Source: an uncultured Candidatus Saccharibacteria bacterium (GTDB lineage: Bacteria; Patescibacteriota; Kazan-3B-28; UBA10110). Taken from it: a stretch of DNA of 47,319 nt. Shown here piece after piece: positions 1-47,319 of the stretch. Under the pieces are notes generated by a model that did no database searches, was not told where the DNA came from, and was given only the letters and a program-made list of their open reading frames with translations. Position 1 is the first letter of the stretch. Every line of letters starts with the position of its first letter. The position numbers were made by a program, and so were the translations under genes. The stretch lies in NCBI GenBank assembly GCA_964424375.1, contig CAYRIH010000002.1, forward strand, positions 1-47,319, read 5' to 3'.

Positions 1-116
1 TCGAAAGTCAGGGGCGCCCGAAACTCCCTTTTGGGAACTAAGGTGAAACTGATGATTGGGGTGAAGTCGTAACAAGGTATCCGTACGGGAACGTGCGGAT
101 GGAACACCTCCTTTCT
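1..116 (+). rRNA. rrs: 16S rRNA, 3'-terminal fragment (gene begins upstream of window)
   Basis: Universal 16S 3' end GTGAAGTCGTAACAAGGTATCCGTACGGGAACGTGCGGATGGAACACCTCCTTTCT with anti-SD CCTCC; terminus placed by analogy with the E. coli 3' end. Confidence 0.9.
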
Positions 117-426: not shown

Positions 427-502
427 TGGTGGACCCGGGCGGACTCGAACCGCCTACCTCCGCATTGCAAATGCGATGTTCTACCAGATGAACTACGGGC
501 CC
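427..502 (-). tRNA. tRNA-Ala (UGC)
   Basis: Reverse complement GGGCCCGTAGTTCATCTGGTAGAACATCGCATTTGCAATGCGGAGGTAGGCGGTTCGAGTCCGCCCGGGTCCACCA; 7-bp acceptor with G3:U70, anticodon loop TTTGCAA, T-loop GGTTCGAGTCC, encoded CCA. Confidence 0.9.
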
Positions 503-1507: not shown

Positions 1508-2266
1508 ATGGCTGTAATTAAAACCAAAGGCATTATCATAAAGCGAATTAATCTAGGTGAGGCAGATAAGATAATTACCATCATTACTCAGAATAGAGGA
1601 AAGATTCGTGTTGTAGCTAAGGGCGTAAGAAAACCCCGTGCAAGATTGAGCGGTTTTTTAGAGATGTTTCATTATAATGAATATCTGCTGGCTGAAGGCA
1701 GGAATCTGGATATTGTCACAGGAGCTAATACTTTAGATACTCTACATGGCATAAGCAGAGGCTTAAAGCCGATTGCTTTAGCATATTATGTGGCTGAAAT
1801 AGTAGATAAGTTAATTGAAGAGACTCAAGACCCAGGTAATATATTTGATTTAATCTATTCTACATTTAAGGAAATCAGTAAAGGCAATATCAAACTAAAT
1901 GTAATTAAAAGTTTTTTTGAAATTAATATATTAAATATATTGGGTTTTAAGCCAGAGCTATATAAATGTGTAGAATGTGGTCAGTCGATTGTGTCAAATG
2001 GGCATTTCAGTTTTAATCTGGGAGGGTTGTTAGATGACCAGCACCGATTGAAAGATGTTGCGGCTATTAGTATCAGCAATGAAGAAATAAATATCCTGCG
2101 CCGATTATTAATTGTTGATATTAGCAATTTAGATATTGATACAAATATGTTGGATTTAAATGATGATTCGAAGTTGACCCAAATATGTTCAGGTTTTTTA
2201 AATCACATTGTTGGGAAACGTATTCAATCTAAAGAGTTTTGGCAAAAGATGGTTAATTTTTCTTGA
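1508..2266 (+). CDS. recO: DNA repair protein RecO
   Basis: N-terminal OB-fold pattern (KGIIIKRINLGEADKIITIIT..GKIRVVAKG) and a YKCVECGQ zinc-finger-like motif typical of RecO. Confidence 0.8.
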   Translation: MAVIKTKGIIIKRINLGEADKIITIITQNRGKIRVVAKGVRKPRARLSGFLEMFHYNEYLLAEGRNLDIVTGANTLDTLHGISRGLKPIALAYYVAEIVDKLIEETQDPGNIFDLIYSTFKEISKGNIKLNVIKSFFEINILNILGFKPELYKCVECGQSIVSNGHFSFNLGGLLDDQHRLKDVAAISISNEEINILRRLLIVDISNLDIDTNMLDLNDDSKLTQICSGFLNHIVGKRIQSKEFWQKMVNFS

Positions 2267-3203
2267 CTTTGCCTTGTCGGTTGTGAAAAGCTTTGTGCAC
2301 CTCTCTCAATTGTTTATCTGTTAAGTGGGTATAGATTTGAGTTGTAGTGATAGAAGAATGCCCCAACATAGCCTGAACTGATCTAATATCAGCTCCGTTG
2401 ATTAGTAAATCTGTAGCGAAGGAATGGCGTAAAACATGAGGAGTAACTTTTTTAACAATCCCAGCTTTTTTAGCATATTTTTCTACTATTCTTTGAATAC
2501 TCCTAGGACCTAAAGCAGTGTGTTTACTAGCGCCCTTATGGGCAATAAATGCTGATGAAGAATTATCTGTTCTTTGTGAAAAATATGTATTTAAAAGTTG
2601 TTTGGCTTCTTCTGATAGAAATACCACTCTGGGTTTATCACCCTTGCCTTTAACCATAAATTCACCGCGTTTTATGTTAATATCTCTTTTGTTGAGATTG
2701 GTTAACTCAGAGACTCGCAATCCTGTAGAGAATAAAACAGTTAAAATAGCTAGATTTCTTAAGTCTTCTATTTTATTACTTTTAGGTATAGCTTTAAAAA
2801 TTCTATTAAGCTCATCTAAAGCTAGAAAGTCTATTTGGCGTTTTGACATCTTGCCTAGCTCAATTTTTTCCGCTGGAAGCGATTTTATATCCTGTTTAGC
2901 TAAAAATTTCAAAAAAGCCCTCAGGGCGATAGTATGATAATTTTGAGTAATGGTTTTGAGTGATCTTCCATTATTGTCATGGAATCGATTGAGAAATAAG
3001 CGATATTTTCTAACTAACGGCAGGGTGATTTGGCCAGGCTTTATATCTCTCTTGAATTCTGCTTCAGTAAATTGTGCAAACCGACCCAAGTAGTGGGCAT
3101 AGTTTTGGCGGGTGTACTGGCTTCTATTTTTTTCGATCTCCAAATGATCTAAAAAATCATCAATTAGATATAGTAAAGTAACCATATTTATATTGTGCGA
3201 CAT
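2253..3203 (-). CDS. Tyrosine site-specific recombinase, XerC/XerD-like
   Basis: C-terminal catalytic motifs HVLRHSFATDLL...GADIRSVQAMLGHSSITTTQIYTH; N-terminal SAM-like core-binding region. Confidence 0.85.
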   Translation of the reverse strand: MSHNINMVTLLYLIDDFLDHLEIEKNRSQYTRQNYAHYLGRFAQFTEAEFKRDIKPGQITLPLVRKYRLFLNRFHDNNGRSLKTITQNYHTIALRAFLKFLAKQDIKSLPAEKIELGKMSKRQIDFLALDELNRIFKAIPKSNKIEDLRNLAILTVLFSTGLRVSELTNLNKRDINIKRGEFMVKGKGDKPRVVFLSEEAKQLLNTYFSQRTDNSSSAFIAHKGASKHTALGPRSIQRIVEKYAKKAGIVKKVTPHVLRHSFATDLLINGADIRSVQAMLGHSSITTTQIYTHLTDKQLREVHKAFHNRQGKVKKN

Positions 3204-22804: not shown

Positions 22805-24187
22805 CTAAACCAATCTTACAGGGAAGAACTGATCCAGGGGAATTGTTGAATCGCGGCCACAATAACGTTTGCCTTCAGCACATTGTCCACATTGGTAACA
22901 TTTTGGAGACAACATGTTTAAAAGTTGAACTGAGTGTTGTCCAGAGCTTTTTGGGAGTATGGCTTCACGCAATAGTCGAGATAGGTTATAAATCTCTTCC
23001 TGTGTGCACCAACACAGTCTTTTATCTTGCTCGTGAAGTACGGTGTTTAAAGTGCCCTTTTTGATGTAACGTACCATGGCTCCGTAAGGTGATAAAAATC
23101 TAAACAGTGCAGGGTGCACGTTTGTAGAAAGGGTTAACCACATTTCGGCGATTTGCATTAACTCCTTATTGATATTTAATTCTCTAACAATAGGAGGGTG
23201 GTAAAATCCGCCAGTAAAATCGAACGGGCCCCTGTTAATTCGCCGGTGGCGCTGATCCTGCCCCATGGTAGCTACCGATATTTCAATTTGGGTTTTGATA
23301 TCGATAACGTTATTAGGCATAAATTTGGGGTTAAAGTGTAATGTGTCTACCGGATGGGTATCGGTAGGTTCTGGATAAACAGCACTGTCTAAATTATCTA
23401 TCGATAATAATTTTAGCTTAGGGCTGTTTTCTAAATTACAGGCGCTAGGGACAGTGATGGTAAGATCGAGAGGACTAATATCAGTTGATGATTTTTCCTC
23501 TCTTTTAAACATATACTGTAATTCTGGATAAAGTTTCAGCACTTCCTGGGCCATTAAATCTGTTACATAGTACATAGGTGAATCCCAGGCTGATCGGTAC
23601 AGGGCTACCAGAGCTGATAAGTTAACAGTATAAGTCAAAGCGGTTGGGAATATTGTTGGGATTAATACTCGAAGTTGTTCTTGTCCAAACTTACGAGCAT
23701 TTTGTTTTATATACTTAGTTGTGGCTTTGGGTCGTTCTTTGGCAATAAACTTTTCAGCTACTTTAGTAGCAGGGTCGATGTTCTGGTTAAACAACTCCTG
23801 GCTAAAATTGATATAGTTTTCAATCCCCCTGATAGTTTTAGTATCAGTTTGAGGAAAGAAATATTTAACATAATCAATAATGCCCTGGGCAATATCTGGG
23901 TCGGAGAACATACCAAAACAGAATCTTCCCGAGCGCTGACTAGTAGTGTAAAAGGGTGAGTTTAGGTGTAATCCAAAAGTTACATTACTAATGGCTACAC
24001 CTTCGATAAAGAATGTAAATTCAGAACTTTGTAATACTGTATGATGTACAGTATTGAATATACTTTTTTCGATGTTAATCGATTTGCCCCATATGGGTTC
24101 CGAATCATCGTAACAGGTACGGGCAGAAAAGGACATTAGAGATGGAGCATCCTTATTAGTGTGACTAATAAGTTTTGCGGTTATCAT
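22805..24187 (-). CDS. Elongated ThyX-like (flavin-dependent thymidylate synthase-like) protein with C-terminal Cys cluster
   Basis: HHTVLQSSEFTFFIEGVAISNVTFGLH...TSQRSGRF resembles the ThyX core (H..VLEH..FTF.I.G.SR....L.RHR..S....SQRY). An RHR triplet occurs only later (QDQRHRRINRG). Convergent with dut-tmk. Confidence 0.5.
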   Translation of the reverse strand: MITAKLISHTNKDAPSLMSFSARTCYDDSEPIWGKSINIEKSIFNTVHHTVLQSSEFTFFIEGVAISNVTFGLHLNSPFYTTSQRSGRFCFGMFSDPDIAQGIIDYVKYFFPQTDTKTIRGIENYINFSQELFNQNIDPATKVAEKFIAKERPKATTKYIKQNARKFGQEQLRVLIPTIFPTALTYTVNLSALVALYRSAWDSPMYYVTDLMAQEVLKLYPELQYMFKREEKSSTDISPLDLTITVPSACNLENSPKLKLLSIDNLDSAVYPEPTDTHPVDTLHFNPKFMPNNVIDIKTQIEISVATMGQDQRHRRINRGPFDFTGGFYHPPIVRELNINKELMQIAEMWLTLSTNVHPALFRFLSPYGAMVRYIKKGTLNTVLHEQDKRLCWCTQEEIYNLSRLLREAILPKSSGQHSVQLLNMLSPKCYQCGQCAEGKRYCGRDSTIPLDQFFPVRLV

Positions 24188-38864: not shown

Positions 38865-38947
38865 CGACATTTTTCATCGCGTCGTCATTCTGGCTTGTCT
38901 GCCCTGAGCTTATCGAATGGATCCAGAATCTATTACAATTCTATAAA

Positions 38948-38973
38948 AGAGCCTGTATATACAGGCTCTTTTA
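38948..38973 (+). terminator. Intrinsic terminator after ftsZ
   Basis: AGAGCCTGT ATAT ACAGGCTCT followed by TTTT. Confidence 0.8.
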
Positions 38974-39031
38974 AAATACTTTTAAATAAGTTTGATGTTT
39001 TTTGTTTGAGATTAAGATTTTTTAACTGATT

Positions 39032-39060
39032 TTGTAGACCACAATATATTGTGTTACATT
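39032..39060 (+). promoter_or_regulatory. Putative nrdJ promoter (TTGTAG-N17-TACATT) with an NrdR-box-like palindrome CACAATATATTGTG (39040-39053) in the spacer
   Basis: The 14-nt perfect palindrome matches the core of the NrdR-box consensus (acaCwAtATaTwGtgt); hexamer spacing counted by hand. Confidence 0.55.
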
Positions 39061-39100
39061 GGACAGTGCATCACAAAATAATTAAATCTTAGGAGGATTT

Positions 39101-41902: not shown

Positions 41903-41929
41903 GCCACCATTCCTCAAACAATTAAACTT

Positions 41930-42000
41930 CAATGGCTCAACGCCGTTGAGCCATTGAAAATAAGATAAAAATTTAACGGCTCATGAATGAGCCGTTAAAG
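41930..42000 (+). repeat. Double-hairpin module, copy A (CAATGGCTCAAC GCC GTTGAGCCATTG ... TTTAACGGCTCA TGAA TGAGCCGTTAAA)
   Basis: Two stems sharing the GGCTCA/TGAGCC core; 64/71 positions identical to 46437..46507 in an ungapped hand alignment; no U-tracts. Confidence 0.85.
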
Positions 42001-42027
42001 AAATGGGATAAAAATAGCTCTGAAAGT
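41999..42027 (+). repeat. 29-nt direct repeat, copy 1 (AGAAATGGGATAAAAATAGCTCTGAAAGT)
   Basis: Differs at one position from 42384..42412. Confidence 0.85.
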
Positions 42028-42096
42028 TAGTTTTTAATTTAGGGTATAATTTGGGTATGTTTAGTAATGAAATAACAAATTTATCAGGAGGTGTAG

Positions 42097-42396
42097 ATGT
42101 TTTATATAGATTTTGAAGAGGATTATAAAGAGTTGGAGCCTGGCCCTGCTAATGCTTGGTCTAAGCGAGTTGAGGTATTCAATTTTCCCCATAATTTAAC
42201 ACAGGCTAAACAACTTATTCTCGATGAATTTAAAAAACTGGATAGGGTCGGGATATGTGCATCGACTATACTTTTTACAATATCTACTGACGGTAACAAC
42301 ACTAATGTTGCTGATGGGGCTATAGATATTCCCGATTTAAATGTGAGATTTGGTCACCGCAATGGTGAGTTTTTAGATGTTGAAGAAATAGGATAA
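42097..42396 (+). CDS. Hypothetical protein (99 aa)
   Basis: CAGGAGG SD 6 nt upstream; TATAAT at 42045-42050. Contains ILFTISTDGNN, resembling IIYIISTDGDF of the downstream vWA-like protein. Confidence 0.55.
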   Translation: MFYIDFEEDYKELEPGPANAWSKRVEVFNFPHNLTQAKQLILDEFKKLDRVGICASTILFTISTDGNNTNVADGAIDIPDLNVRFGHRNGEFLDVEEIG

Positions 42397-42412
42397 AAAT
42401 AGCTCTGAAAGT
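42384..42412 (+). repeat. 29-nt direct repeat, copy 2 (AGAAATAGGATAAAAATAGCTCTGAAAGT), overlapping the stop of the 99-aa ORF
   Basis: See 41999..42027. Confidence 0.85.
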
Positions 42413-42508
42413 AGAAAAAGCTTGATATATTTTAATTTATATGCTATTTTTCGTGTATATTAATTTTAAGAGATATGTGATGGTTTTTCAATCAATAATC
42501 TTTATCCA

Positions 42509-43759
42509 ATGGATGAGAACAACAATTTAGATCAATCAGAGCAGCAATCTCAGTTACAGAAAAATGATGAAAATTTAGGGGAATCTGCCGGTTTTCCTGA
42601 GCAACAGCCTAAATCGTACCAAGAGAATTCCAATTTAAATTTAGTGGTCGCAGAGAAACTGACCAAGGGGCAGACGCGAGGGTTGGTCTTAGGTACGATT
42701 ATTGTGCTTGGGCTATTTGGTACAATGGTCGCGTGGGTCATAACTCACACCCCTCCACCAACCGACAGTCTTAACATCAGTCAGTCGTGCTCCTGGGGTT
42801 TCTGGTGCGCAGGAGACCTTAAAATCTCGCTCGACAGAGAAGATTATAAGATATCCTATCTTAATGCGGCCGGCGAAGAAGAGTCGTTCTATATTGCTCA
42901 ATCTGGTAAGGAATCACCCGAAAGTGACCCCCTGACGCTCGCATTAATTAGACATGCAAAAACATCGTCTTCCCCTAAATTAGATTCTCCCTTTAGTGGG
43001 GTTGACGGGGGGCACAAAATCATCAGTCTGACTTTGGATGTGTCTTTATCTACGAGAAACCTTATTAATGTAAAAGACGGATACTACAGAGAATTGTTGA
43101 ATGAGATGCAAACAATGTTAACCGATAGCGAGGTTAATCTTCGACCAGGCGATGAAATTAGAGTTGGATTTTTAGGCAGGAAGTGGAATACTGGTTCCGG
43201 TTTCAAAACGATAGATTTCGCAGGGCCTAACTTTGATAATGATTTCGAGTTTACATCCAGAAGGCAGATTAGTGTGTTATCAATAAAAAATCCCGTCATA
43301 CCTGAACCTGAGTTTGATATCGATCAAAATAGACTGAAAGCATATTCTATAGCCGATGTTATGGAGGCCGTACATCTAGTTTATTCATCAGAATTGGAAA
43401 ATAATAAAAATATCCAAGATGGTACTTTTCTGATTAGTGGTCTAGAAGACCTGTCTCGTGTCCTCGTAGATAAGAAAAAATTCAGCTCAATTATTTATAT
43501 TATTTCTACAGATGGTGATTTTCATATTCGCTCAACAAGGGATTATTGTTGGATTAACACCTATCCCGAATGTCACGCACGTATTCTTAGAAAATATAAA
43601 GATGTGCCAATCCTGCAAACTCTGTCTGCTGAATTGGATAGAGCTTATGTGGTTGGGGTTGAATGGTACAACAACGATGCCTATAGAGAATCTTTGGATA
43701 ACGTGTTCAAGACCTTGCTTCAACCGATACCCGAGGAAAGAATAAAAATAATTAACTAA
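42509..43759 (+). CDS. Membrane-anchored protein with vWA-like domain (MIDAS-like DxSxS...T...DG pattern)
   Basis: Q/N/E-rich N-terminus, single TM (LVLGTIIVLGLFGTMVAWVI), then KIISLTLDVSLST (DxSxS), GDEIRVGFLG, DGTFLISGLEDL, SSIIYIISTDGDF, AYVVGVEW in the order expected for a vWA Rossmann fold. Confidence 0.5.
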   Translation: MDENNNLDQSEQQSQLQKNDENLGESAGFPEQQPKSYQENSNLNLVVAEKLTKGQTRGLVLGTIIVLGLFGTMVAWVITHTPPPTDSLNISQSCSWGFWCAGDLKISLDREDYKISYLNAAGEEESFYIAQSGKESPESDPLTLALIRHAKTSSSPKLDSPFSGVDGGHKIISLTLDVSLSTRNLINVKDGYYRELLNEMQTMLTDSEVNLRPGDEIRVGFLGRKWNTGSGFKTIDFAGPNFDNDFEFTSRRQISVLSIKNPVIPEPEFDIDQNRLKAYSIADVMEAVHLVYSSELENNKNIQDGTFLISGLEDLSRVLVDKKKFSSIIYIISTDGDFHIRSTRDYCWINTYPECHARILRKYKDVPILQTLSAELDRAYVVGVEWYNNDAYRESLDNVFKTLLQPIPEERIKIIN

Positions 43760-43766
43760 GAATATC

Positions 43767-45170
43767 ATGATGTTAACACCCTTGGTTTATTTGATAGTTG
43801 GTCTTGCCGCGACTATGTTGGTAGGTTATATGATCTATAGTCAAACTAACATCTATTTTAAACGAGGACGTAAAAAGGCCTATCAGTGGGTGGCCAGAGG
43901 ATTAATCACAGTCGATGAGCAGATTGCTCAGAAGTTAGACAATATGAAGCAGTTGCGTGATCAAGTGTTCAAAGTTGCCTTAGAGGCGGACCAATTAGCG
44001 CTTCACCAGTCGATTGATGCCTTTGACAAAAGGATCCAAGAAATAAATGCAAGGAATGCCAAGTTGATAGACAAAAGAGACGCTTTGGCTGAAAAGCCTA
44101 TTGAATCAACCATGGTGATAGATGATGGTTATTATGTTGGTGCTGAAGATGCGGTCAAAGACAAATTGGCTGAGATAGACAAGGAGTTGAAAGAATTGGG
44201 CGATGAATTATCACAACTCCAAGAGCGTACAACAGAGGCTATGTCAGAGAGCGTAGGGCCTTGGGTTGCTAGCACGCAGAAGTGGTTTCAGAGTATCTTG
44301 CACAATCTGTCAGTCTGGTCAAAAGAAGTCTCCAATAAGCTGCTAGTTTTGTTTCTGTGGGCTGTTGAATTTTCTATTGGTCTGTATCTATTTAAGGAAT
44401 TGTTTTTAGCCTACTTCCCTGATGTAATGGCCTATGTAGTTGCCGGCGGTCTCACACTATCCTTGGTCGTTGTGGCTCATACTGTTTATAGTCATCTTCG
44501 TTCTATTGTAGCGGGCCGATTCTTAGTCAACCTTGTAATCCCGGGTATTTTGCTACTTTTAACCATACTTCTTGTGCTATATGTGCAATTATTTAGCGAC
44601 AGCATCGCTATACCAAGAGTACTAATGTGGACTGTATTCGTTGGTCTTATCCACTATGTTGCGTTACGGAGTACTGACACTAGAAACCCATTTGAGGTAG
44701 CAATGTTAATAAGAGCCCCTCTGTTATTGCTAATTAACACTCTTGTTATAATCCCCGCTGCGATAATTTTAGCTACTGAAAAGGGAATATATTTGTTGGT
44801 TAATATATTCAGGTCTAGTCCGATATCTGAAAGAGAGCGCTCCATTAAGAATCGTATTGCCGAACTTGGGTCAGATAAAGATAGGCAAAACAAAGAAATG
44901 AACGATCTGCGCGCACAGTGCAGCACATTTAGAAAAGGAGAGGTCTCAAGGATGCGACAAGAAGGAGTAGACAAAATAAAGCTCGAAAGCCAAGCCATGG
45001 ATACTCAAATAGAAAGTTACAACAAAAGCGTGGGGCAGTTAAGAAGTCAACGACAGATTTTTGTGACTAATCTAGACAATTTGCGTCTTGGTTCAGATGC
45101 CGGAACGGATGCTGGTGTAGTTGTTGTTATGAACAGGCGTGCTGCAGCAGTAAAAAAAGATAAAAAGTAG
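43767..45170 (+). CDS. Polytopic membrane protein with N- and C-terminal coiled-coil regions, hypothetical
   Basis: N-terminal TM, ~150 aa heptad-like E/K/L/Q region, ~6 hydrophobic helices (aa ~195-345), second charged helical region, basic tail; 7-nt gap from the upstream gene. Confidence 0.6.
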   Translation: MMLTPLVYLIVGLAATMLVGYMIYSQTNIYFKRGRKKAYQWVARGLITVDEQIAQKLDNMKQLRDQVFKVALEADQLALHQSIDAFDKRIQEINARNAKLIDKRDALAEKPIESTMVIDDGYYVGAEDAVKDKLAEIDKELKELGDELSQLQERTTEAMSESVGPWVASTQKWFQSILHNLSVWSKEVSNKLLVLFLWAVEFSIGLYLFKELFLAYFPDVMAYVVAGGLTLSLVVVAHTVYSHLRSIVAGRFLVNLVIPGILLLLTILLVLYVQLFSDSIAIPRVLMWTVFVGLIHYVALRSTDTRNPFEVAMLIRAPLLLLINTLVIIPAAIILATEKGIYLLVNIFRSSPISERERSIKNRIAELGSDKDRQNKEMNDLRAQCSTFRKGEVSRMRQEGVDKIKLESQAMDTQIESYNKSVGQLRSQRQIFVTNLDNLRLGSDAGTDAGVVVVMNRRAAAVKKDKK

Positions 45171-45172
45171 AG

Positions 45173-45847
45173 ATGGATATTAAAAGGCGGTTTTATCTAA
45201 TATCCTTGGTGGGATTAATCCTTCTTGGGCTGGTTTTTCCGTTGGGGATGGTTGTTGCTCAGGGAGAGGAAGCACAAAAACAAATTGAAATTGTTGTTCC
45301 GACGAAGCCCATTGACGGGCTTCGTTCTGTTTTTGTTGAAAGGGTGATTGATGGAGACACTATTATTACTGATGATGAGGAGCGGATTCGGTATATTGGG
45401 ATGAATACTCCAGAGACAGTACATCCGTCGAAGCCGGTAGAGTTTTTTGGTGAAGAAGCGAGTGATAAAAATACAGAATTAGTTGAAGGACAGATTGTTG
45501 AGTTAGAATTTGATATTGAAAAAATAGATCAATATGGACGGACCTTGGCTTATATTTGGTTGGATGATGAAATGATTAATGCCAAATTACTTGCGGAAGG
45601 GTATGCCCAGGTTGCGACTTATCCGCCAAATATAAAATATGTTGATTATTTTCTATTTCTCCAAGAAGAAGCAAGAATAAATGAAATGGGGTTGTGGGTC
45701 GTTGAAGGTGATAAAATTATAATTACTGGATTAGACGAAGATGTTGAAACTGAATCAATTCCATCTAATTATAATTGGTTTTGGTGGCTCGGAGGTTTTG
45801 GTATAGTTGTTTTTTGGGTGTATAAATGGGTTGGAAGTAAATATTAG
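45173..45847 (+). CDS. Staphylococcal-nuclease (SNase/thermonuclease) family nuclease with N-terminal signal/TM and C-terminal TM anchor
   Basis: VERVIDGDTI...IRYIGMNTPET...FGEEAS...DQYGRTLAYIWL...NAKLLAEGYAQV...GLW; C-terminal WFWWLGGFGIVVFWVY. Confidence 0.8.
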   Translation: MDIKRRFYLISLVGLILLGLVFPLGMVVAQGEEAQKQIEIVVPTKPIDGLRSVFVERVIDGDTIITDDEERIRYIGMNTPETVHPSKPVEFFGEEASDKNTELVEGQIVELEFDIEKIDQYGRTLAYIWLDDEMINAKLLAEGYAQVATYPPNIKYVDYFLFLQEEARINEMGLWVVEGDKIIITGLDEDVETESIPSNYNWFWWLGGFGIVVFWVYKWVGSKY

Positions 45848-45854
45848 CCAATTT

Positions 45855-46082
45855 ATGCATAGAACAATAGAAGATCTGAATGCAACATGGTGGTATAGAT
45901 TATTGAAGGTGATCTTTATTATTTTATTTGTGAGTAATTTGTTATTGTGGGGAGCAGTTCTTTGGGATGCTGTAGGTGTATTATTATGGCTATCAATTAT
46001 TATTGGGATCGCATTATTATTCTGGTTAATATCAAGAATATTTTTCTATATTGTTTTAGGTGAGTTTTTACCAAGGAGATAG
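45855..46082 (+). CDS. Small two-TM membrane protein (75 aa), hypothetical
   Basis: ATG 45855, in frame with track ORF 45807; two hydrophobic helices; 7-nt gap after the nuclease stop. Confidence 0.5.
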   Translation: MHRTIEDLNATWWYRLLKVIFIILFVSNLLLWGAVLWDAVGVLLWLSIIIGIALLFWLISRIFFYIVLGEFLPRR

Positions 46083-46085
46083 AGA

Positions 46086-46406
46086 ATGAGGATTGGACAC
46101 AATACAATTAGCGTAGTACCAGCAATTATAGTAATTATTATGTCATTACTGGCACTTTTTGCTTGGCCGTATGCATATTATATTTTTCTTAAGTTTATAG
46201 TAATTGGAACGGCTGCCTATTATGCTTATTATCTATATCAGGCCAATGGGTTGAATAGTATTTGGTTTTGGATATTCATCTTTATAGCCATTCTATTTAA
46301 TCCATTCATGCCAATTTATTTGGGAGACAGAAGCTTGTGGTCAGTGATTGATATAGGATTAGTAATTATAGTGGGTATATTTTTAGGTGTCAGTCGACAG
46401 CAGTAG
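46086..46406 (+). CDS. Small multi-TM membrane protein (106 aa), hypothetical
   Basis: Three to four hydrophobic helices rich in Y/F/I; AGGAGA just upstream; 3-nt gap from the preceding gene. Confidence 0.55.
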   Translation: MRIGHNTISVVPAIIVIIMSLLALFAWPYAYYIFLKFIVIGTAAYYAYYLYQANGLNSIWFWIFIFIAILFNPFMPIYLGDRSLWSVIDIGLVIIVGIFLGVSRQQ

Positions 46407-46436
46407 ATGAAAAGTATGTTGGGTATATAGATTTTT

Positions 46437-46507
46437 CAACGGCTCAACAGCGTTGAGCCATTAAAAATAAGATAAAACTTTAACGGCTCATGAATGAGCC
46501 GTTGAAA
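46437..46507 (+). repeat. Double-hairpin module, copy B
   Basis: CAACGGCTCAAC AGC GTTGAGCCATT ... TTTAACGGCTCA TGAA TGAGCCGTTGAAA; see 41930..42000. Confidence 0.85.
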
Positions 46508-46510
46508 ATA

Positions 46511-46539
46511 TTGACTAGAGGCTGGTTTTTTAATATATT
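46511..46539 (+). promoter_or_regulatory. Sigma70-like promoter TTGACT-N17-TATATT for the tandem-repeat gene
   Basis: Hexamers and 17-nt spacer counted by hand; about 40 nt upstream of ATG 46579. Confidence 0.45.
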
Positions 46540-46578: not shown

Positions 46579-47319
46579 ATGTCTAAAGGGTTAGTCGAAT
46601 TGAAGGAGCTCGCTCAAAAGCTATTAGAGGCTTTGCCACAAGAAGAACCTCTTACAGCCGAAGAGATTGCTGCCGTCTCTGACTGGGGTACACTAATGAA
46701 GATGTGGGAGCAGGCTCTATCTAACTCCAAGTCAGAAGGGCTGATTGAAGCCAGAATGACTGAGATCTTACCCGACCTGTTGCCTGCCATCTCTGACTGG
46801 GATGTACTGATGAAGATGCGGAGGAGCACTTTATCTGGCTCCAAGCCCAGGGAGCTGATTGAAGTCAGGATGAATGAGACACTCTCTGCCATCTCTGACT
46901 GGGATGCACTAATGGAAATGCAGACGAGTACTTTATCTGACTCCAAACTCAGAGAACTGATTAAAGCCAGAATGAATGAGGTACTCTCTACCATCTCTGA
47001 CTGGGATACACTGAGGAAGATGTATGAGCAGGCTCTATCTATCTCCAAGCCCGAAGGGCTGATTGTAGCCAGAATGGCTGAGATCTTACCCGACCTGCTG
47101 CCTACCATCTCTGACTGGAATATACTGATGGGGATGCGGCAGAGCTTTTCATCTGATTCCAAGTCCCAAAGGCTGGTTGGAGTCAGGATGAGTGAACTGG
47201 TAGAGTCGACAGACATCGCTAATCTGCCAAACTGGGTGTTGCAAGGTTTGAAAAACCCAAACAGGGTTAAATCCTTTCTCTGGGTATCTTTCATCCATCT
47301 GGCCAAAAGGATTATAGCA
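46579..47319 (+). CDS. Tandem-repeat protein (5 units of 38/34 aa), 3'-partial, runs off the window
   Basis: GGAGG SD 8 nt before the ATG; hand translation is open for 247 codons to the window end. Unit pattern ISDW(D/G/N)xLxKMxxxxLSxSKxxxLIxxRMxE, with or without ILPDLLP. Confidence 0.6.
   Translation, partial: MSKGLVELKELAQKLLEALPQEEPLTAEEIAAVSDWGTLMKMWEQALSNSKSEGLIEARMTEILPDLLPAISDWDVLMKMRRSTLSGSKPRELIEVRMNETLSAISDWDALMEMQTSTLSDSKLRELIKARMNEVLSTISDWDTLRKMYEQALSISKPEGLIVARMAEILPDLLPTISDWNILMGMRQSFSSDSKSQRLVGVRMSELVESTDIANLPNWVLQGLKNPNRVKSFLWVSFIHLAKRIIA

Follow-up and report, generated by a model that had tools for sequence, protein, structure and literature searches.

A rare five-gene envelope operon built around a paired vWA/MIDAS protein and coiled-coil membrane protein lies in a strain-variable hotspot of a Patescibacteria genome

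Several described systems share features with the locus studied here. Extracytoplasmic vWA domains that carry a MIDAS and extra β elements are found in surface adhesins of Gram-positive bacteria, such as the pilus-tip protein SpaC, and in eukaryotic MIDAS receptors (the integrin I domains and CMG2). Staphylococcal nuclease (Nuc, NucI) typifies the SNase domain of secreted or membrane-bound thermonucleases. In BatA/BatB, MoxR-vWA, and TerY, a vWA protein has dedicated partners in an accessory locus; the description of the MoxR-vWA conflict elements is due to Aravind and colleagues (cited in PMC13622651). Zorya combines ZorA, a polytopic membrane protein with a long coiled-coil tail, with single-pass ZorB, whose domain is extracytoplasmic, and a nuclease effector. 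REP/BIME and attC elements are paired short palindromes. The window (the whole 47,319-nt stretch of DNA that was analyzed) very probably contains a strain-variable hotspot and, within it, a conserved but rare cluster of envelope genes.

Two direct copies of a double-hairpin module bracket six ORFs on the + strand (Table 1). The last five, encoding proteins of 416 (X), 467 (Y), 224, 75, and 106 amino acids, are separated by gaps of 7, 2, 7, and 3 nt, in agreement with the gaps given in an earlier note on this DNA, and such short gaps (2–7 nt) indicate one transcription unit. These genes make up a rare, undescribed five-gene envelope operon. The 99-aa ORF is outside any conserved cluster. It has background composition and is absent from the sister strain, and no homologue of it was seen in the X-Y loci. 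The repeat-protein gene is a further hotspot unit outside the operon, and it too is absent from the sister strain. It encodes 34-aa repeats (102-nt repeat family D1 in the DNA; full length taken from L002) and is the strongest compositional outlier in the window (GC3 0.563, z = 6.4).

Table 1. Positions of genes and repeated intergenic elements in the window
Feature	Position	Strand	Description
Double-hairpin module A	41928..42004	.	HP1 41928-41958, A-rich spacer, HP2 41972-41999; direct repeat D3, inverted repeats I15/I2
J-seq copy 1	41994..42027	.	GTTAAAGAAATGGGATAAAAATAGCTCTGAAAGT; direct repeat D5
TATAAT box	42045-42050		Downstream of J-seq copy 1, upstream of 99-aa ORF
99-aa ORF	42097..42396	+	Strong AGGAGG RBS; lacks TM segments and family matches
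J-seq copy 2	42379..42412	.	Overlaps 99-aa ORF stop codon
Promoter-like TTGATA-17-TATTTT	42422-42450		Between J-seq copy 2 and X
X, 416 aa	42509..43759	+	One TM and vWA domain with complete MIDAS
Y, 467 aa	43767..45170	+	1+5 TM, two coiled coils
SNase-family thermonuclease, 224 aa	45173..45847	+	PF00565
75-aa two-TM protein	45855..46082	+	Hydrophobic segments; L032 homologue
106-aa DUF6804 membrane protein	46086..46406	+	PF20619
Double-hairpin module B	46435..46511	.	HP1 46433-46465, HP2 46478-46506
Promoter-like TTGACT-17-TATATT (P2)	46511..46539	+	Drives next hotspot unit
Repeat-protein gene	46579..47319	+	249 aa in full; 9 nt extend beyond window end

X consists of a cytoplasmic tail, one transmembrane (TM) segment (residues about 56–82), an extracytoplasmic β-domain (about 87–130), and the vWA domain, which is predicted to be extracytoplasmic. 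Positively charged residues precede the TM segment. The MIDAS is complete (D177, S179, S181, T306, and D335), and its pattern (DVSLS at 177–181, T306, and D335-G336) is near-invariant across the family. In Foldseek, every top PDB match of the AF2 model (pLDDT 84, pTM 0.77) is a vWA domain, with E from 2e-5 to 1e-3 and prob about 1.0. X has no Pfam, NCBIfam, PADLOC, or PHROG match, and a Pfam VWA match is absent even at E = 10. Only 22 relatives of X occur among 1.84 billion (1.84e9) representatives; six of the 22 have an N-terminal zinc ribbon.

Y has an N-terminal TM segment, a ~150-aa coiled coil, a 5-TM core, and a C-terminal coiled coil of ~110 aa. The first coiled coil is predicted to be cytoplasmic and the second to lie outside, as judged from hydropathy, loop charges, and the positive-inside rule only. 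An alignment of seven homologues reveals a conserved intramembrane E201 (or D) and an invariant P318 in the core, and the conserved end motif [LI][RKQ]xG[SC][DNT] is present in 8/8 sequences. Y has no family match beyond coiled-coil noise. Profile-profile comparison with MotA/ExbB/TolQ was negative (probability 0.2%), and the single PADLOC ZorA3 match covers the coiled-coil tail only.

The nuclease contains an SNase domain at residues 71–175 (PF00565, E = 2e-23, above the Pfam cut-off) and resembles NucI (E = 5e-38), though it falls under the equivalog cut-off (130 vs 250 bits). Its catalytic motif is DGDT...R...NTPE...YGRTLAY, in which R35, E43, R87, and the Ca ligand D21 are kept. The Ca ligand D40 is N here, a point against the mechanism proposed below. 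The N-terminus (hydrophobic 5–32, ...VVAQGEE) resembles a cleavable signal peptide, and an anchor is plausibly provided at the C-terminus by the conserved aromatic segment WFWWLGGFGIVVFWVYKWV, although this is below the hydropathy threshold used. Thus, of the two anchors proposed earlier, the C-terminal one is plausible, while the N-terminal one looks cleavable. Homologues have either a C-terminal anchor or Excalibur, a domain that binds Ca outside the cell, and from its sequence the nuclease is predicted to be secreted or surface-anchored. The 75-aa protein has a homologue in L032 at the same position (63% identical), which also backs the ATG at 45855 as its true start, and the 106-aa protein is a DUF6804 member (PF20619, E = 3e-21).

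The same neighbors recur elsewhere. A Y-type gene directly follows X in 10/10 loci, an SNase gene adjoins X-Y in six of the 10 (with none within reach at L034 and L035), and DUF6804 in four of the 10, including L001, L033, and L156. The X-Y adjacency persists at 20–50% identity, and the SNase and DUF6804 linkage recurs with varying gene order; the usual companions of the pair are thus a Ca-dependent extracellular nuclease of the SNase family and a DUF6804 membrane protein. These data show the genes to be a real conserved cluster. The earlier note had described X as a single-pass vWA/MIDAS protein, Y as polytopic with two flanking coiled-coil regions, and the nuclease as SNase-family, which the near-invariant MIDAS with the AF2 and Foldseek results, the homologue alignment with hydropathy, and the PF00565 match, respectively, bear out; as that note had stated, our searches found no known defense, secretion, or ATPase hallmark.

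X and Y co-vary, and the two have been swapped together, independently of the genes for the nuclease and DUF6804. Between the window and L001 (GC 43%), identity is 47% for X, 53% for Y, 57% for SNase, and 38% for DUF6804. Between the window and L032/L033, X and Y are only 27–30% and 24% identical, whereas SNase is 68–69%, DUF6804 66%, and the 75-aa protein 63% identical. Over 15 locus pairs, X and Y identities correlate (Pearson 0.84, driven by two close pairs; Spearman 0.36) and X and SNase identities do not (Pearson -0.03). X and Y were suspected to be GC-richer than their surroundings, and they are modestly so (GC3 0.388, z = 2.4, and 0.404, z = 2.75, respectively; 39 upstream genes, 0.284 +/- 0.044), with the nuclease and small genes at background level.

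In this small-genome, Patescibacteria-type bacterium the cluster lies between nrdJ, a ribonucleotide reductase gene, and cobA in a strain-variable hotspot, as follows from comparison with a sister genome (L161) that has 1.5 kb here in place of 6.7 kb. The flanks are 95–97% identical between the two genomes, and L002 9404–16084 (6.68 kb) is replaced by L161 12811–14339 (1.53 kb), which holds HP1, a small ORF, HP2, the junction sequence (J-seq), a promoter, and His_Phos_1, with J-seq and the promoter upstream of His_Phos_1. Far from forming a core set inherited vertically beside nrdJ, the genes are strain-variable, and the insertion or exchange suggested earlier finds its empty site in the sister strain. 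The exchanged unit is not the proposed hairpin-to-hairpin segment, however, since the whole 6.7 kb differs between the strains and, within the operon, X-Y has a history different from that of SNase and DUF6804.

We infer that the operon encodes a variable complex for binding at the cell surface, which is coupled to an extracellular nuclease and serves scavenging or interaction with a host. This placement is supported by the positive charge before the X TM segment, the zinc ribbons, the nuclease signal peptide, the Excalibur domain or anchor of homologues, and the loop charges of Y. Tentatively, we propose that X and Y assemble into a complex at the cell surface and that a tethered nuclease acts beside it, for attachment and nucleic-acid scavenging. 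The X MIDAS would bind an acidic ligand, which may be a molecule on the target surface or the acidic motif conserved at the C-terminus of Y; the coiled coils of Y may connect the complex across the membrane. The nuclease, tethered to that surface, would break down DNA or RNA outside the cell. Such a role could suit a nucleotide-auxotrophic, probably host-attached Patescibacterium, with X-Y as a fast-evolving, swappable specificity module. Patescibacteria lack nucleotide synthesis, and epibiotic growth needs several adhesins (PMC10633639); the ability of Southlakia to grow without ComEC DNA uptake counts against scavenging (PMC10633639). The rarity of the cluster and its absence from the sister strain argue against a core nutritional function.

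Being accessory, rare, and strain-variable, the operon could instead be a conflict system of the envelope, directed against phages, plasmids, or transformation or excluding superinfection, and possibly carried by integrative elements. The X MIDAS would then sense a surface event, Y would relay it across the membrane or perturb the membrane, and the nuclease would destroy incoming or released nucleic acid. We consider this main rival rather unlikely. In its favor, fast divergence and swapping of a sensor-like pair are typical of loci in arms races, and the nuclease matches the PADLOC candidate family C3a212 'SNc+LTD' (6e-31). Defense- or mobile-type neighbors at other loci, namely large serine recombinases (L001 and L156), DUF3800 (L031), an EVE-PD-(D/E)XK nuclease (L035), and a weak TerB match (L034), fit a conflict role as well or better. 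However, these neighbors are few and differ from locus to locus, X and Y match no PADLOC model (the Y matches are all coiled-coil noise, including the one to ZorA3, which covers only the ZorA tail region), and no relatives were found in phage collections. The operon itself has no ATPase or cytoplasmic effector, and an extracellular nuclease cannot reach phage DNA injected into the cytoplasm.

The hairpin modules are local intergenic repeats of the hotspot and not the borders of a mobile cassette, as had been supposed. Module A directly follows the nrdJ stop (41902). The copies are 77 nt long and 69/77 identical (90%) without gaps; the 64/71 identity reported earlier refers to the same repeat, slightly trimmed. 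Each module has two hairpins, with stems of 14 and 12 bp, and folds stably in prediction (MFE -37.7 kcal/mol, z = -9.1 for copy A; -32 kcal/mol, z = -7.1 for copy B). The core GGCTCA...TGAGCC occurs four times in the window, always within the two modules (0.03 expected by chance). Six such hairpins were seen, all in the one 6.7-kb hotspot, in a census of about 53 kb of the 626-kb scaffold. Two further HP2 copies, which the earlier note did not mention, lie just past the window end.

The units of the hotspot are separated by a few repeated pieces: a 28–31-nt palindromic hairpin, the junction sequence, and a promoter. A hairpin marks four consecutive boundaries, after nrdJ, DUF6804, the 249-aa gene, and the 177-aa gene. 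J-seq, a 34-nt direct repeat also missing from the earlier note, flanks the 99-aa ORF (94% identity between copies) and follows other hotspot units as well. Near-identical copies of P2 precede the paralogous 177-aa gene and a small ORF of the sister strain. The hairpins thus occur at boundaries of unrelated genes throughout nrdJ-cobA and in the cassette-free sister strain, and at none of the nine other X-Y loci (0/9).

That nothing more is present than ordinary terminators and six unrelated neighboring genes seems very improbable to us. Consistent with it, the hairpins lie at gene 3' ends, another Patescibacteria genome has similar ones beside polA and fpg, which are unrelated housekeeping genes, metagenomes commonly contain the stem AACGGCTCA...TGAGCCGTT whatever their GC content, and the 99-aa ORF belongs to no conserved cluster. 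As noted before, though, neither hairpin is followed by a T-run on the + strand (a terminator scan calls them on the - strand only), and a canonical terminator stands just upstream of the hairpin after the 249-aa and 177-aa genes, so the hairpins are not simply terminators; the other 42 kb of the window has none. For the genes, synteny far beyond chance largely refutes this explanation, and the single transcription unit also speaks against it. The hairpins may be 3'-end RNA hairpins or REP-like elements, and recombination between the short homologies they offer could reshuffle the hotspot.

The consensus of the attC cores is RYYYAAC/GTTRRRY, and we take the HP2 flanks ATTTAAC ... GTTAAAG to resemble its R''/R' cores. 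It is nevertheless hardly credible that the hairpins serve site-specific recombination, as integron attC-like or REP/RAYT-type sites, and delimit mobile cassettes. In favor of this reading, every hotspot unit ends in a hairpin, the units all have the same orientation, one long imperfect hairpin can also form from the four arms of a module (the copy B MFE structure), and a 22-mer is shared with another Patescibacteria genome. Against it, neither an integron integrase nor a RAYT is nearby (the window has a single tyrosine recombinase, XerC/D-like and adjoining recO, 39 kb away), the short perfect palindromes are without the extrahelical bases that typify attC, J-seq with no hairpin bounds the 99-aa unit, the other nine X-Y loci do without the hairpins, and the units have their own promoters, two with a terminator before the hairpin, unlike integron cassettes.

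Compared with known systems, the hairpins share with REP/BIME and attC elements their pairing, intergenic 3' positions, local repetition, and sequence conservation between genomes, but number six in one hotspot of self-promoted units in which no RAYT or IntI was identified. The parallel to Zorya is superficial, as the X TM segment lacks a conserved Asp and the operon nuclease is extracellular. As in BatA/BatB, MoxR-vWA, and TerY, X has a dedicated partner in an accessory locus, and one locus has a weak TerB-like neighbor; however, no MoxR AAA+ ATPase, kinase, phosphatase, or FHA protein occurs in or beside the 10 loci, and the X vWA domain is outside the cell. The nuclease shares with Nuc and NucI the SNase domain, R35, E43, R87, D21, and a signal peptide, and differs from them in its score below the NucI cut-off, the D40 to N change, the plausible C-terminal aromatic anchor, and its X-Y operon. 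SpaC, the integrin I domains, and CMG2 are the best matches to the predicted fold of X (residues about 169–416), and like them X has a complete MIDAS (DxSxS, T, D) in an extracytoplasmic domain with inserted β elements. Unlike them, X escapes the Pfam VWA model, is held by an N-terminal TM segment and cytoplasmic tail (with a zinc ribbon in some relatives) in place of the pilin or sortase signals of the adhesins, and has a coiled-coil membrane protein as its partner at every locus.

The 77-nt module downstream of nrdJ occurs twice as an ungapped direct repeat with 90% identity, and its two copies bracket six ORFs on the + strand. Each copy forms two strong hairpins, HP1 and HP2 (folding against shuffles, z = -9.1 and -7.1), and the core GGCTCA...TGAGCC is confined to the two copies within the whole window, in which 0.03 occurrences are expected. 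The sequence 3' of the stems is A-rich on the coding (+) strand. The first ORF (99 aa) is followed by a five-gene operon, with gaps of 7, 2, 7, and 3 nt, that encodes protein X (416 aa), protein Y (467 aa), a 224-aa SNase-family nuclease, a 75-aa protein, and a 106-aa DUF6804 protein. The earlier note had described the duplicated module, the absence of a U-tract, and the ORFs with their spacing, and its observation as a whole is borne out. Its interpretation stands in part: the gene cluster is supported more strongly than that reader could know, while the role it gave the hairpins as borders of a cassette is not supported.

Coordinates of the features discussed in the text, each numbered on the sequence named. 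L002 is the window's own scaffold, read beyond the end of the window (L002 coordinate + 32508 = window coordinate); L161 is the sister strain; L007 and L024 are other hairpin-bearing genomes.
Feature	Sequence	Position	Strand
3' end of 16S rRNA gene	window	1-114	+
tRNA-Ala, tRNA-Ile	window	427-502, 1318-1393	-
XerC/D-like tyrosine recombinase	window	2253-3203	
ThyX-like ORF	window	22805-24187	-
ftsZ-nrdJ site lacking the 226-aa gene	window	38865-39100	
Double-hairpin module, copies A and B	window	41928-42004, 46435-46511	
AACGGCTCATGAATGAGCCGTT palindrome	window	41972-41999, 46478-46506	
AACGGCTCATGAATGAGCCGTT palindrome	L024	1597-1675, 4753-4774	
224-aa SNase-family nuclease gene	window	45173-45847	+
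ATG of the 75-aa ORF (fifth ORF)	window	45855	+
249-aa repeat-protein gene	window	46579-47319 (to L002 14820)	
177-aa repeat-protein gene	L002	15423-15956	
cobA locus with preceding hairpin and promoter	L002	16014-16606	
ftsZ-nrdJ site carrying the 226-aa gene	L161	8826-9929	
His_Phos_1-cobA locus	L161	13733-14861	
Variant hairpin pair	L007	7584-7677	

The operon was compared with the contexts of nine further X relatives. In all nine, a gene for a Y-type protein (455-510 aa), or its start at a contig end, lies directly after X. An SNase gene adjoins the X-Y pair, before or after it, in the window and at loci L001, L031, L032, L033, and L160, and its accessory parts differ by locus (a C-terminal anchor, an Excalibur domain, or a Cys-rich tail). 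DUF6804 occurs in the window, L001, L033, and L156. Locus L035 has an EVE-PD-(D/E)XK nuclease upstream instead, and L034 a weak TerB-like neighbor. Large serine recombinases are present on L001 and L156, and DUF3800 on L031; MoxR, kinase, phosphatase, sortase, and pilin partners are absent from the surveyed loci. The searchable literature holds no description of a vWA-SNase cluster in Patescibacteria or of this gene combination, no paper on DUF6804, and only three incidental mentions of DUF4407. The cluster is undescribed as a system; its constituent domains, vWA and SNase, are known folds, and hairpin repeats are of a familiar kind. The locus defines two families that have no curated model, a very divergent extracellular vWA/MIDAS protein and a membrane partner with two coiled coils; the linkage between the two is constant, and a surface nuclease usually accompanies them.

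Protein X has no match in Pfam, NCBIfam, PADLOC, or PHROGs, and its isolated domain has none in Pfam at E ≤ 10. A word-indexed search returned a single homologue, and an exhaustive HMM search of 1.84 billion representatives returned 22, one of which matches PF00092 weakly (E = 0.068). In the alignment of these 22 sequences, the near-invariant positions are exactly those of a MIDAS: D177, S179, S181, and T306, each kept in at least 90% of the family, and the invariant D335-G336. AlphaFold2 modeling on this alignment gave a pLDDT of 84 and a pTM of 0.77 (an earlier model from a two-sequence alignment, with a pLDDT of 34, was unusable). The top Foldseek matches of the model in the PDB are all vWA domains (SpaC, PTMP1, CMG2, integrin I domains, factor B, Ku80, and TFIIH p44; E = 2e-5 to 1e-3), and its matches in a viral structure library are vWA as well. 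Since the curated Pfam VWA models do not recognize X, it is the fold and the motif, and not the sequence, that assign it to the vWA class, of which it is a highly divergent member. X has a single TM segment (residues 56-82) preceded by K/R residues, and six of the 22 relatives carry an N-terminal zinc ribbon; on both grounds, the vWA domain should be located outside the cell.

Protein Y gives only coiled-coil noise in Pfam, NCBIfam, PADLOC, and PHROGs, and searches of PDB sequences with profiles of the two proteins gave no meaningful match. Seven to eight homologues share a common plan consisting of an N-terminal TM segment, a coiled coil of ~150 residues, five hydrophobic helices, a second coiled coil of ~110 residues, and an end motif, [LI][RKQ]xG[SC][DNT]. 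A basic stretch with an invariant R33 follows the first TM segment, which is missing in the L034 homologue. The charges of the loops alternate, with the b-c and d-e loops basic and the a-c-side loops acidic or neutral. This pattern would put the first coiled coil on the cytoplasmic side; given the five helices, the second would lie outside. Y belongs to none of the families tested. For Zorya ZorA, the ZorA3 match is restricted to tail positions 376-559, and the TM segment of the partner X has no conserved acidic residue. DUF4407 (PF14362) matched one of seven homologues at E = 0.025 and did not match the Y of the window. As for a MotA/ExbB/TolQ stator, hhalign against E. coli TolQ, ExbB, and MotA gave a probability of 0.2%, with sensitivity limited by a template of only three sequences.

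The nuclease (PF00565, 83.3 bits against a cut-off of 21) and the DUF6804 protein (PF20619, 75.8 bits against a cut-off of 27) are ordinary members of their families. The nuclease has a signal peptide, a conserved aromatic C-terminal segment, and the motif DGDT...R..IGMNTPE...YGRTLAY; of the SNase residues D21, R35, D40, E43, and R87, all are present except the Ca ligand D40. This position is N in the window (protein residue 78, within GMNTPE), whereas each of the five homologues with coverage of the motif has D; the change may reduce activity or alter metal preference. Two TM segments are present in the 75-aa protein, and a 63%-identical homologue at L032 confirms the reading of its ORF from the ATG.

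Pairwise identities between loci are incongruent between X-Y and SNase/DUF6804. Compared with L001, the window has identities of 47% for X, 53% for Y, 57% for SNase, and 38% for DUF6804; compared with L032 and L033, these are 27-30% for X, 24% for Y, 68-69% for SNase, and 66% for DUF6804. Likewise, the X and Y of L033 are closest to those of L031 (39% and 33%), which has a nuclease of another subtype (37%). Across 15 pairs of loci, X identity follows Y identity with a Pearson coefficient of 0.84 and a Spearman coefficient of 0.36, and SNase identity is uncorrelated with either. The X and Y genes, noted earlier as GC-richer by eye, indeed have a GC3 of 0.39-0.40 against a background of 0.284 ± 0.044; the genes for SNase, the 75-aa protein, and DUF6804 are at background. 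The L001 source genome has 43% GC. The incongruent identities and the composition together indicate that X and Y have been replaced jointly, by exchange between lineages, within an operon whose other genes are resident. Such replacement argues that X and Y work together and would constitute the variable, specificity-bearing part of the operon.

The operon also varies between strains. The window belongs to a 626-kb metagenomic scaffold of 36% GC (ENA ERZ23486238, BAEC19-1_SAMN10404973 scaffold_4) with the housekeeping genes of a small genome (secDF, hisS, ybeY, ftsA, ftsZ, nrdJ, cobA, and ileS). The source is taken to be of Patescibacteria type, given the small scaffold and the recurrence of its hairpin in two genomes with Saccharibacteria and Patescibacteria labels in GTDB. 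The nrdJ cluster pointed to a 607-kb scaffold of a sister strain (ERZ23498918 scaffold_1), whose flanks are 95-97% identical in DNA; cobA and the next gene diverge more (89% identity). The nrdJ-cobA interval measures 6.68 kb here and accommodates the 99-aa ORF, all five genes of the operon, and a pair of repeat-protein genes. In the sister strain it measures 1.53 kb, and HP1 is followed by a small ORF that has a terminator, then by HP2, then by half a hairpin joined to the junction sequence and promoter, and last by His_Phos_1. This is the empty-site comparison that the earlier note had called for: the operon is absent from the sister strain, and the interval is a strain-variable hotspot. The paralogous repeat-protein genes (249 and 177 aa), both absent from the sister strain, encode 34-aa 'ISDWDxLxxM' repeats without a family match and share 3' ends, terminators, and hairpins; in composition, the copy in the window stands out far more than any other gene (GC 47.6%, GC3 0.56, z = 6.4). 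The sister strain's His_Phos_1 (CobC-like) gene overlaps cobA and lies directly downstream of the B12-dependent nrdJ, and the three look like a small B12-related cluster; the window genome has no phosphatase gene at this locus, and a hairpin and promoter precede cobA. Between ftsZ and nrdJ, the sister strain also carries a 226-aa gene that the window genome lacks, so that another small indel site adjoins the hotspot.

Hairpins occur at four consecutive unit boundaries from nrdJ to cobA. Two further copies of the second hairpin, TTTAACGGCTCATGGATGAGCCGTTAAA, lie past the end of the window, 3' of the 249-aa gene and 3' of its 177-aa paralogue, which brings the tally to six hairpins at four sites within 6.7 kb, plus two in the sister strain. 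They are accompanied by a junction sequence, GGATAAAAATAGCTCTGAAAGT, in three copies (two of them forming a 34-nt repeat around the 99-aa ORF), and by two copies of a promoter-like site, TTGACT-17-TATATT. Hairpins, junction sequence, and promoter are present in the sister strain as well, without the cassette. The remaining 42 kb of the window and the L002 and L161 flanks outside the hotspot are free of the hairpin, and none accompanies the operon at the other loci (0/9). Logan assemblies made independently from this strain or from sister strains (L003, 4173 nt; L004; L162) are broken at or near these pieces: L003 and L004 begin 8 nt upstream of the junction core, L003 ends 48-54 nt beyond module B, and L162 ends ~30 nt before the HP1 position of the sister strain. 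These breaks fit the pieces being repeats in those populations.

Elsewhere, the 22-mer AACGGCTCATGAATGAGCCGTT recurs identically in L024, a Patescibacteria MAG, as a pair before polA and a single copy after fpg/mutM, near recF and dnaN. The members of this pair are ~42 nt apart and are followed by AAATGGG, as in the window. A variant pair occurs in L007, a Saccharibacteria MAG. These two genomes, labelled Saccharibacteria and Patescibacteria in GTDB, were the only relevant ones among 26 loci found there with the double-hairpin pattern; the other 24 are unrelated, and those examined are outside Patescibacteria, several in high-GC taxa. A metagenome scan with AACGGCTCA-N3-7-TGAGCCGTT had contigs of 31-70% GC among the matches listed and is uninformative about a conserved element, as the 9-nt stem is a common hairpin stem. 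L007 and L024 have no nucleotide similarity to the window other than the hairpins, so the palindrome seems conserved or mobile. Being found at hotspot boundaries, in a cassette-less sister strain, and beside polA and fpg, the hairpins belong to the host's intergenic repertoire and the nrdJ-cobA hotspot, not to the cassette.

Their role is possibly that of an RNA 3' hairpin, a REP- or MITE-like element, or a protein-binding palindrome. REP/BIME elements are found as many dispersed intergenic copies with an associated RAYT transposase. Rfam has no family matching the hairpins. An intrinsic (Rho-independent) terminator does not fit, as the stems lack a U-run on the + strand, the strand of all flanking genes, and a terminator scan calls them on the - strand only. 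A textbook terminator, CCACCCACTTGTGGGTGG-TTTTTT, is located upstream of each of the two extra copies, so at two of the four boundaries the hairpin is clearly not the terminator. An integron comprises an IntI integrase with attI beside an array of promoterless cassettes, each of which ends in an attC. Integron cassettes are very unlikely here, since no integrase was found and the units bear promoter-like sites of their own; the sole tyrosine recombinase among the L002 hotspot-region genes and ten large upstream window ORFs searched with Pfam is XerC/D-like and lies 39 kb away. An operator is rejected because the distance from hairpin to promoter varies, and a DNA uptake sequence by density; the hairpin also seems unlike the NrdR box.

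Two other features of the window were observed. The window opens with the 3' end of a 16S rRNA gene on the + strand, and the tRNA-Ala and tRNA-Ile genes after it have the opposite orientation, which departs from the usual spacer of an rRNA operon. The ThyX-like ORF encodes 460 aa, about twice the usual length, and its Thy1 domain spans residues 5-219 only, which leaves the C-terminal half unassigned.

As to function, X and Y would form a surface complex in which the MIDAS binds an acidic ligand, either a surface molecule of the target or Y's own C-terminal motif, and the tethered nuclease would act at the same surface. Patescibacteria lack nucleotide synthesis, and their epibiotic growth depends on adhesins (PMC10633639). 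For these reasons, attachment plus nucleic-acid scavenging is ranked first, with a confidence that stops a little short of even. An envelope conflict system comes second and strikes us as unlikely: rarity, strain variability, and neighbors of defense or mobile type would suit it, but the nuclease is extracellular and there is no known defense component. PADLOC-DB v2 gave nothing for the X, 99-aa, 75-aa, and DUF6804 proteins, coiled-coil-type matches only for Y (E ≥ 0.01), and for the nuclease a candidate SNc+LTD family through the SNase domain only, in keeping with the lack of a defense hallmark remarked on earlier. A phage origin is rejected, as IMG/VR and GenBank phages contain no relatives of X or Y.

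The hotspot is an accessory site of a streamlined genome of 0.6 Mb. Recurring pieces (hairpin, junction, and promoter) join its units, and this build bears on gene gain and loss in such small genomes. Patescibacteria account for much of the diversity of uncultured bacteria, and little is known about their means of attaching to and feeding on hosts. The locus raises the questions of what the MIDAS binds, whether X-Y positions or controls the nuclease, and whether the module sets host range or resistance to phage or DNA. Most speculatively, and in our estimate improbably, X-Y(-SNase-DUF6804) could be an unrecognized class of envelope machinery in ultra-small bacteria. It would then be a modular surface receptor, with a vWA/MIDAS head carried by its transmembrane coiled-coil partner, and would turn a tethered nuclease against whatever it has bound, be it a host or prey cell, a phage, or foreign DNA. 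The specificity pair would be swapped horizontally, like a tail-fiber or toxin-immunity module, and the whole would amount to a novel type of system for host interaction or immunity.
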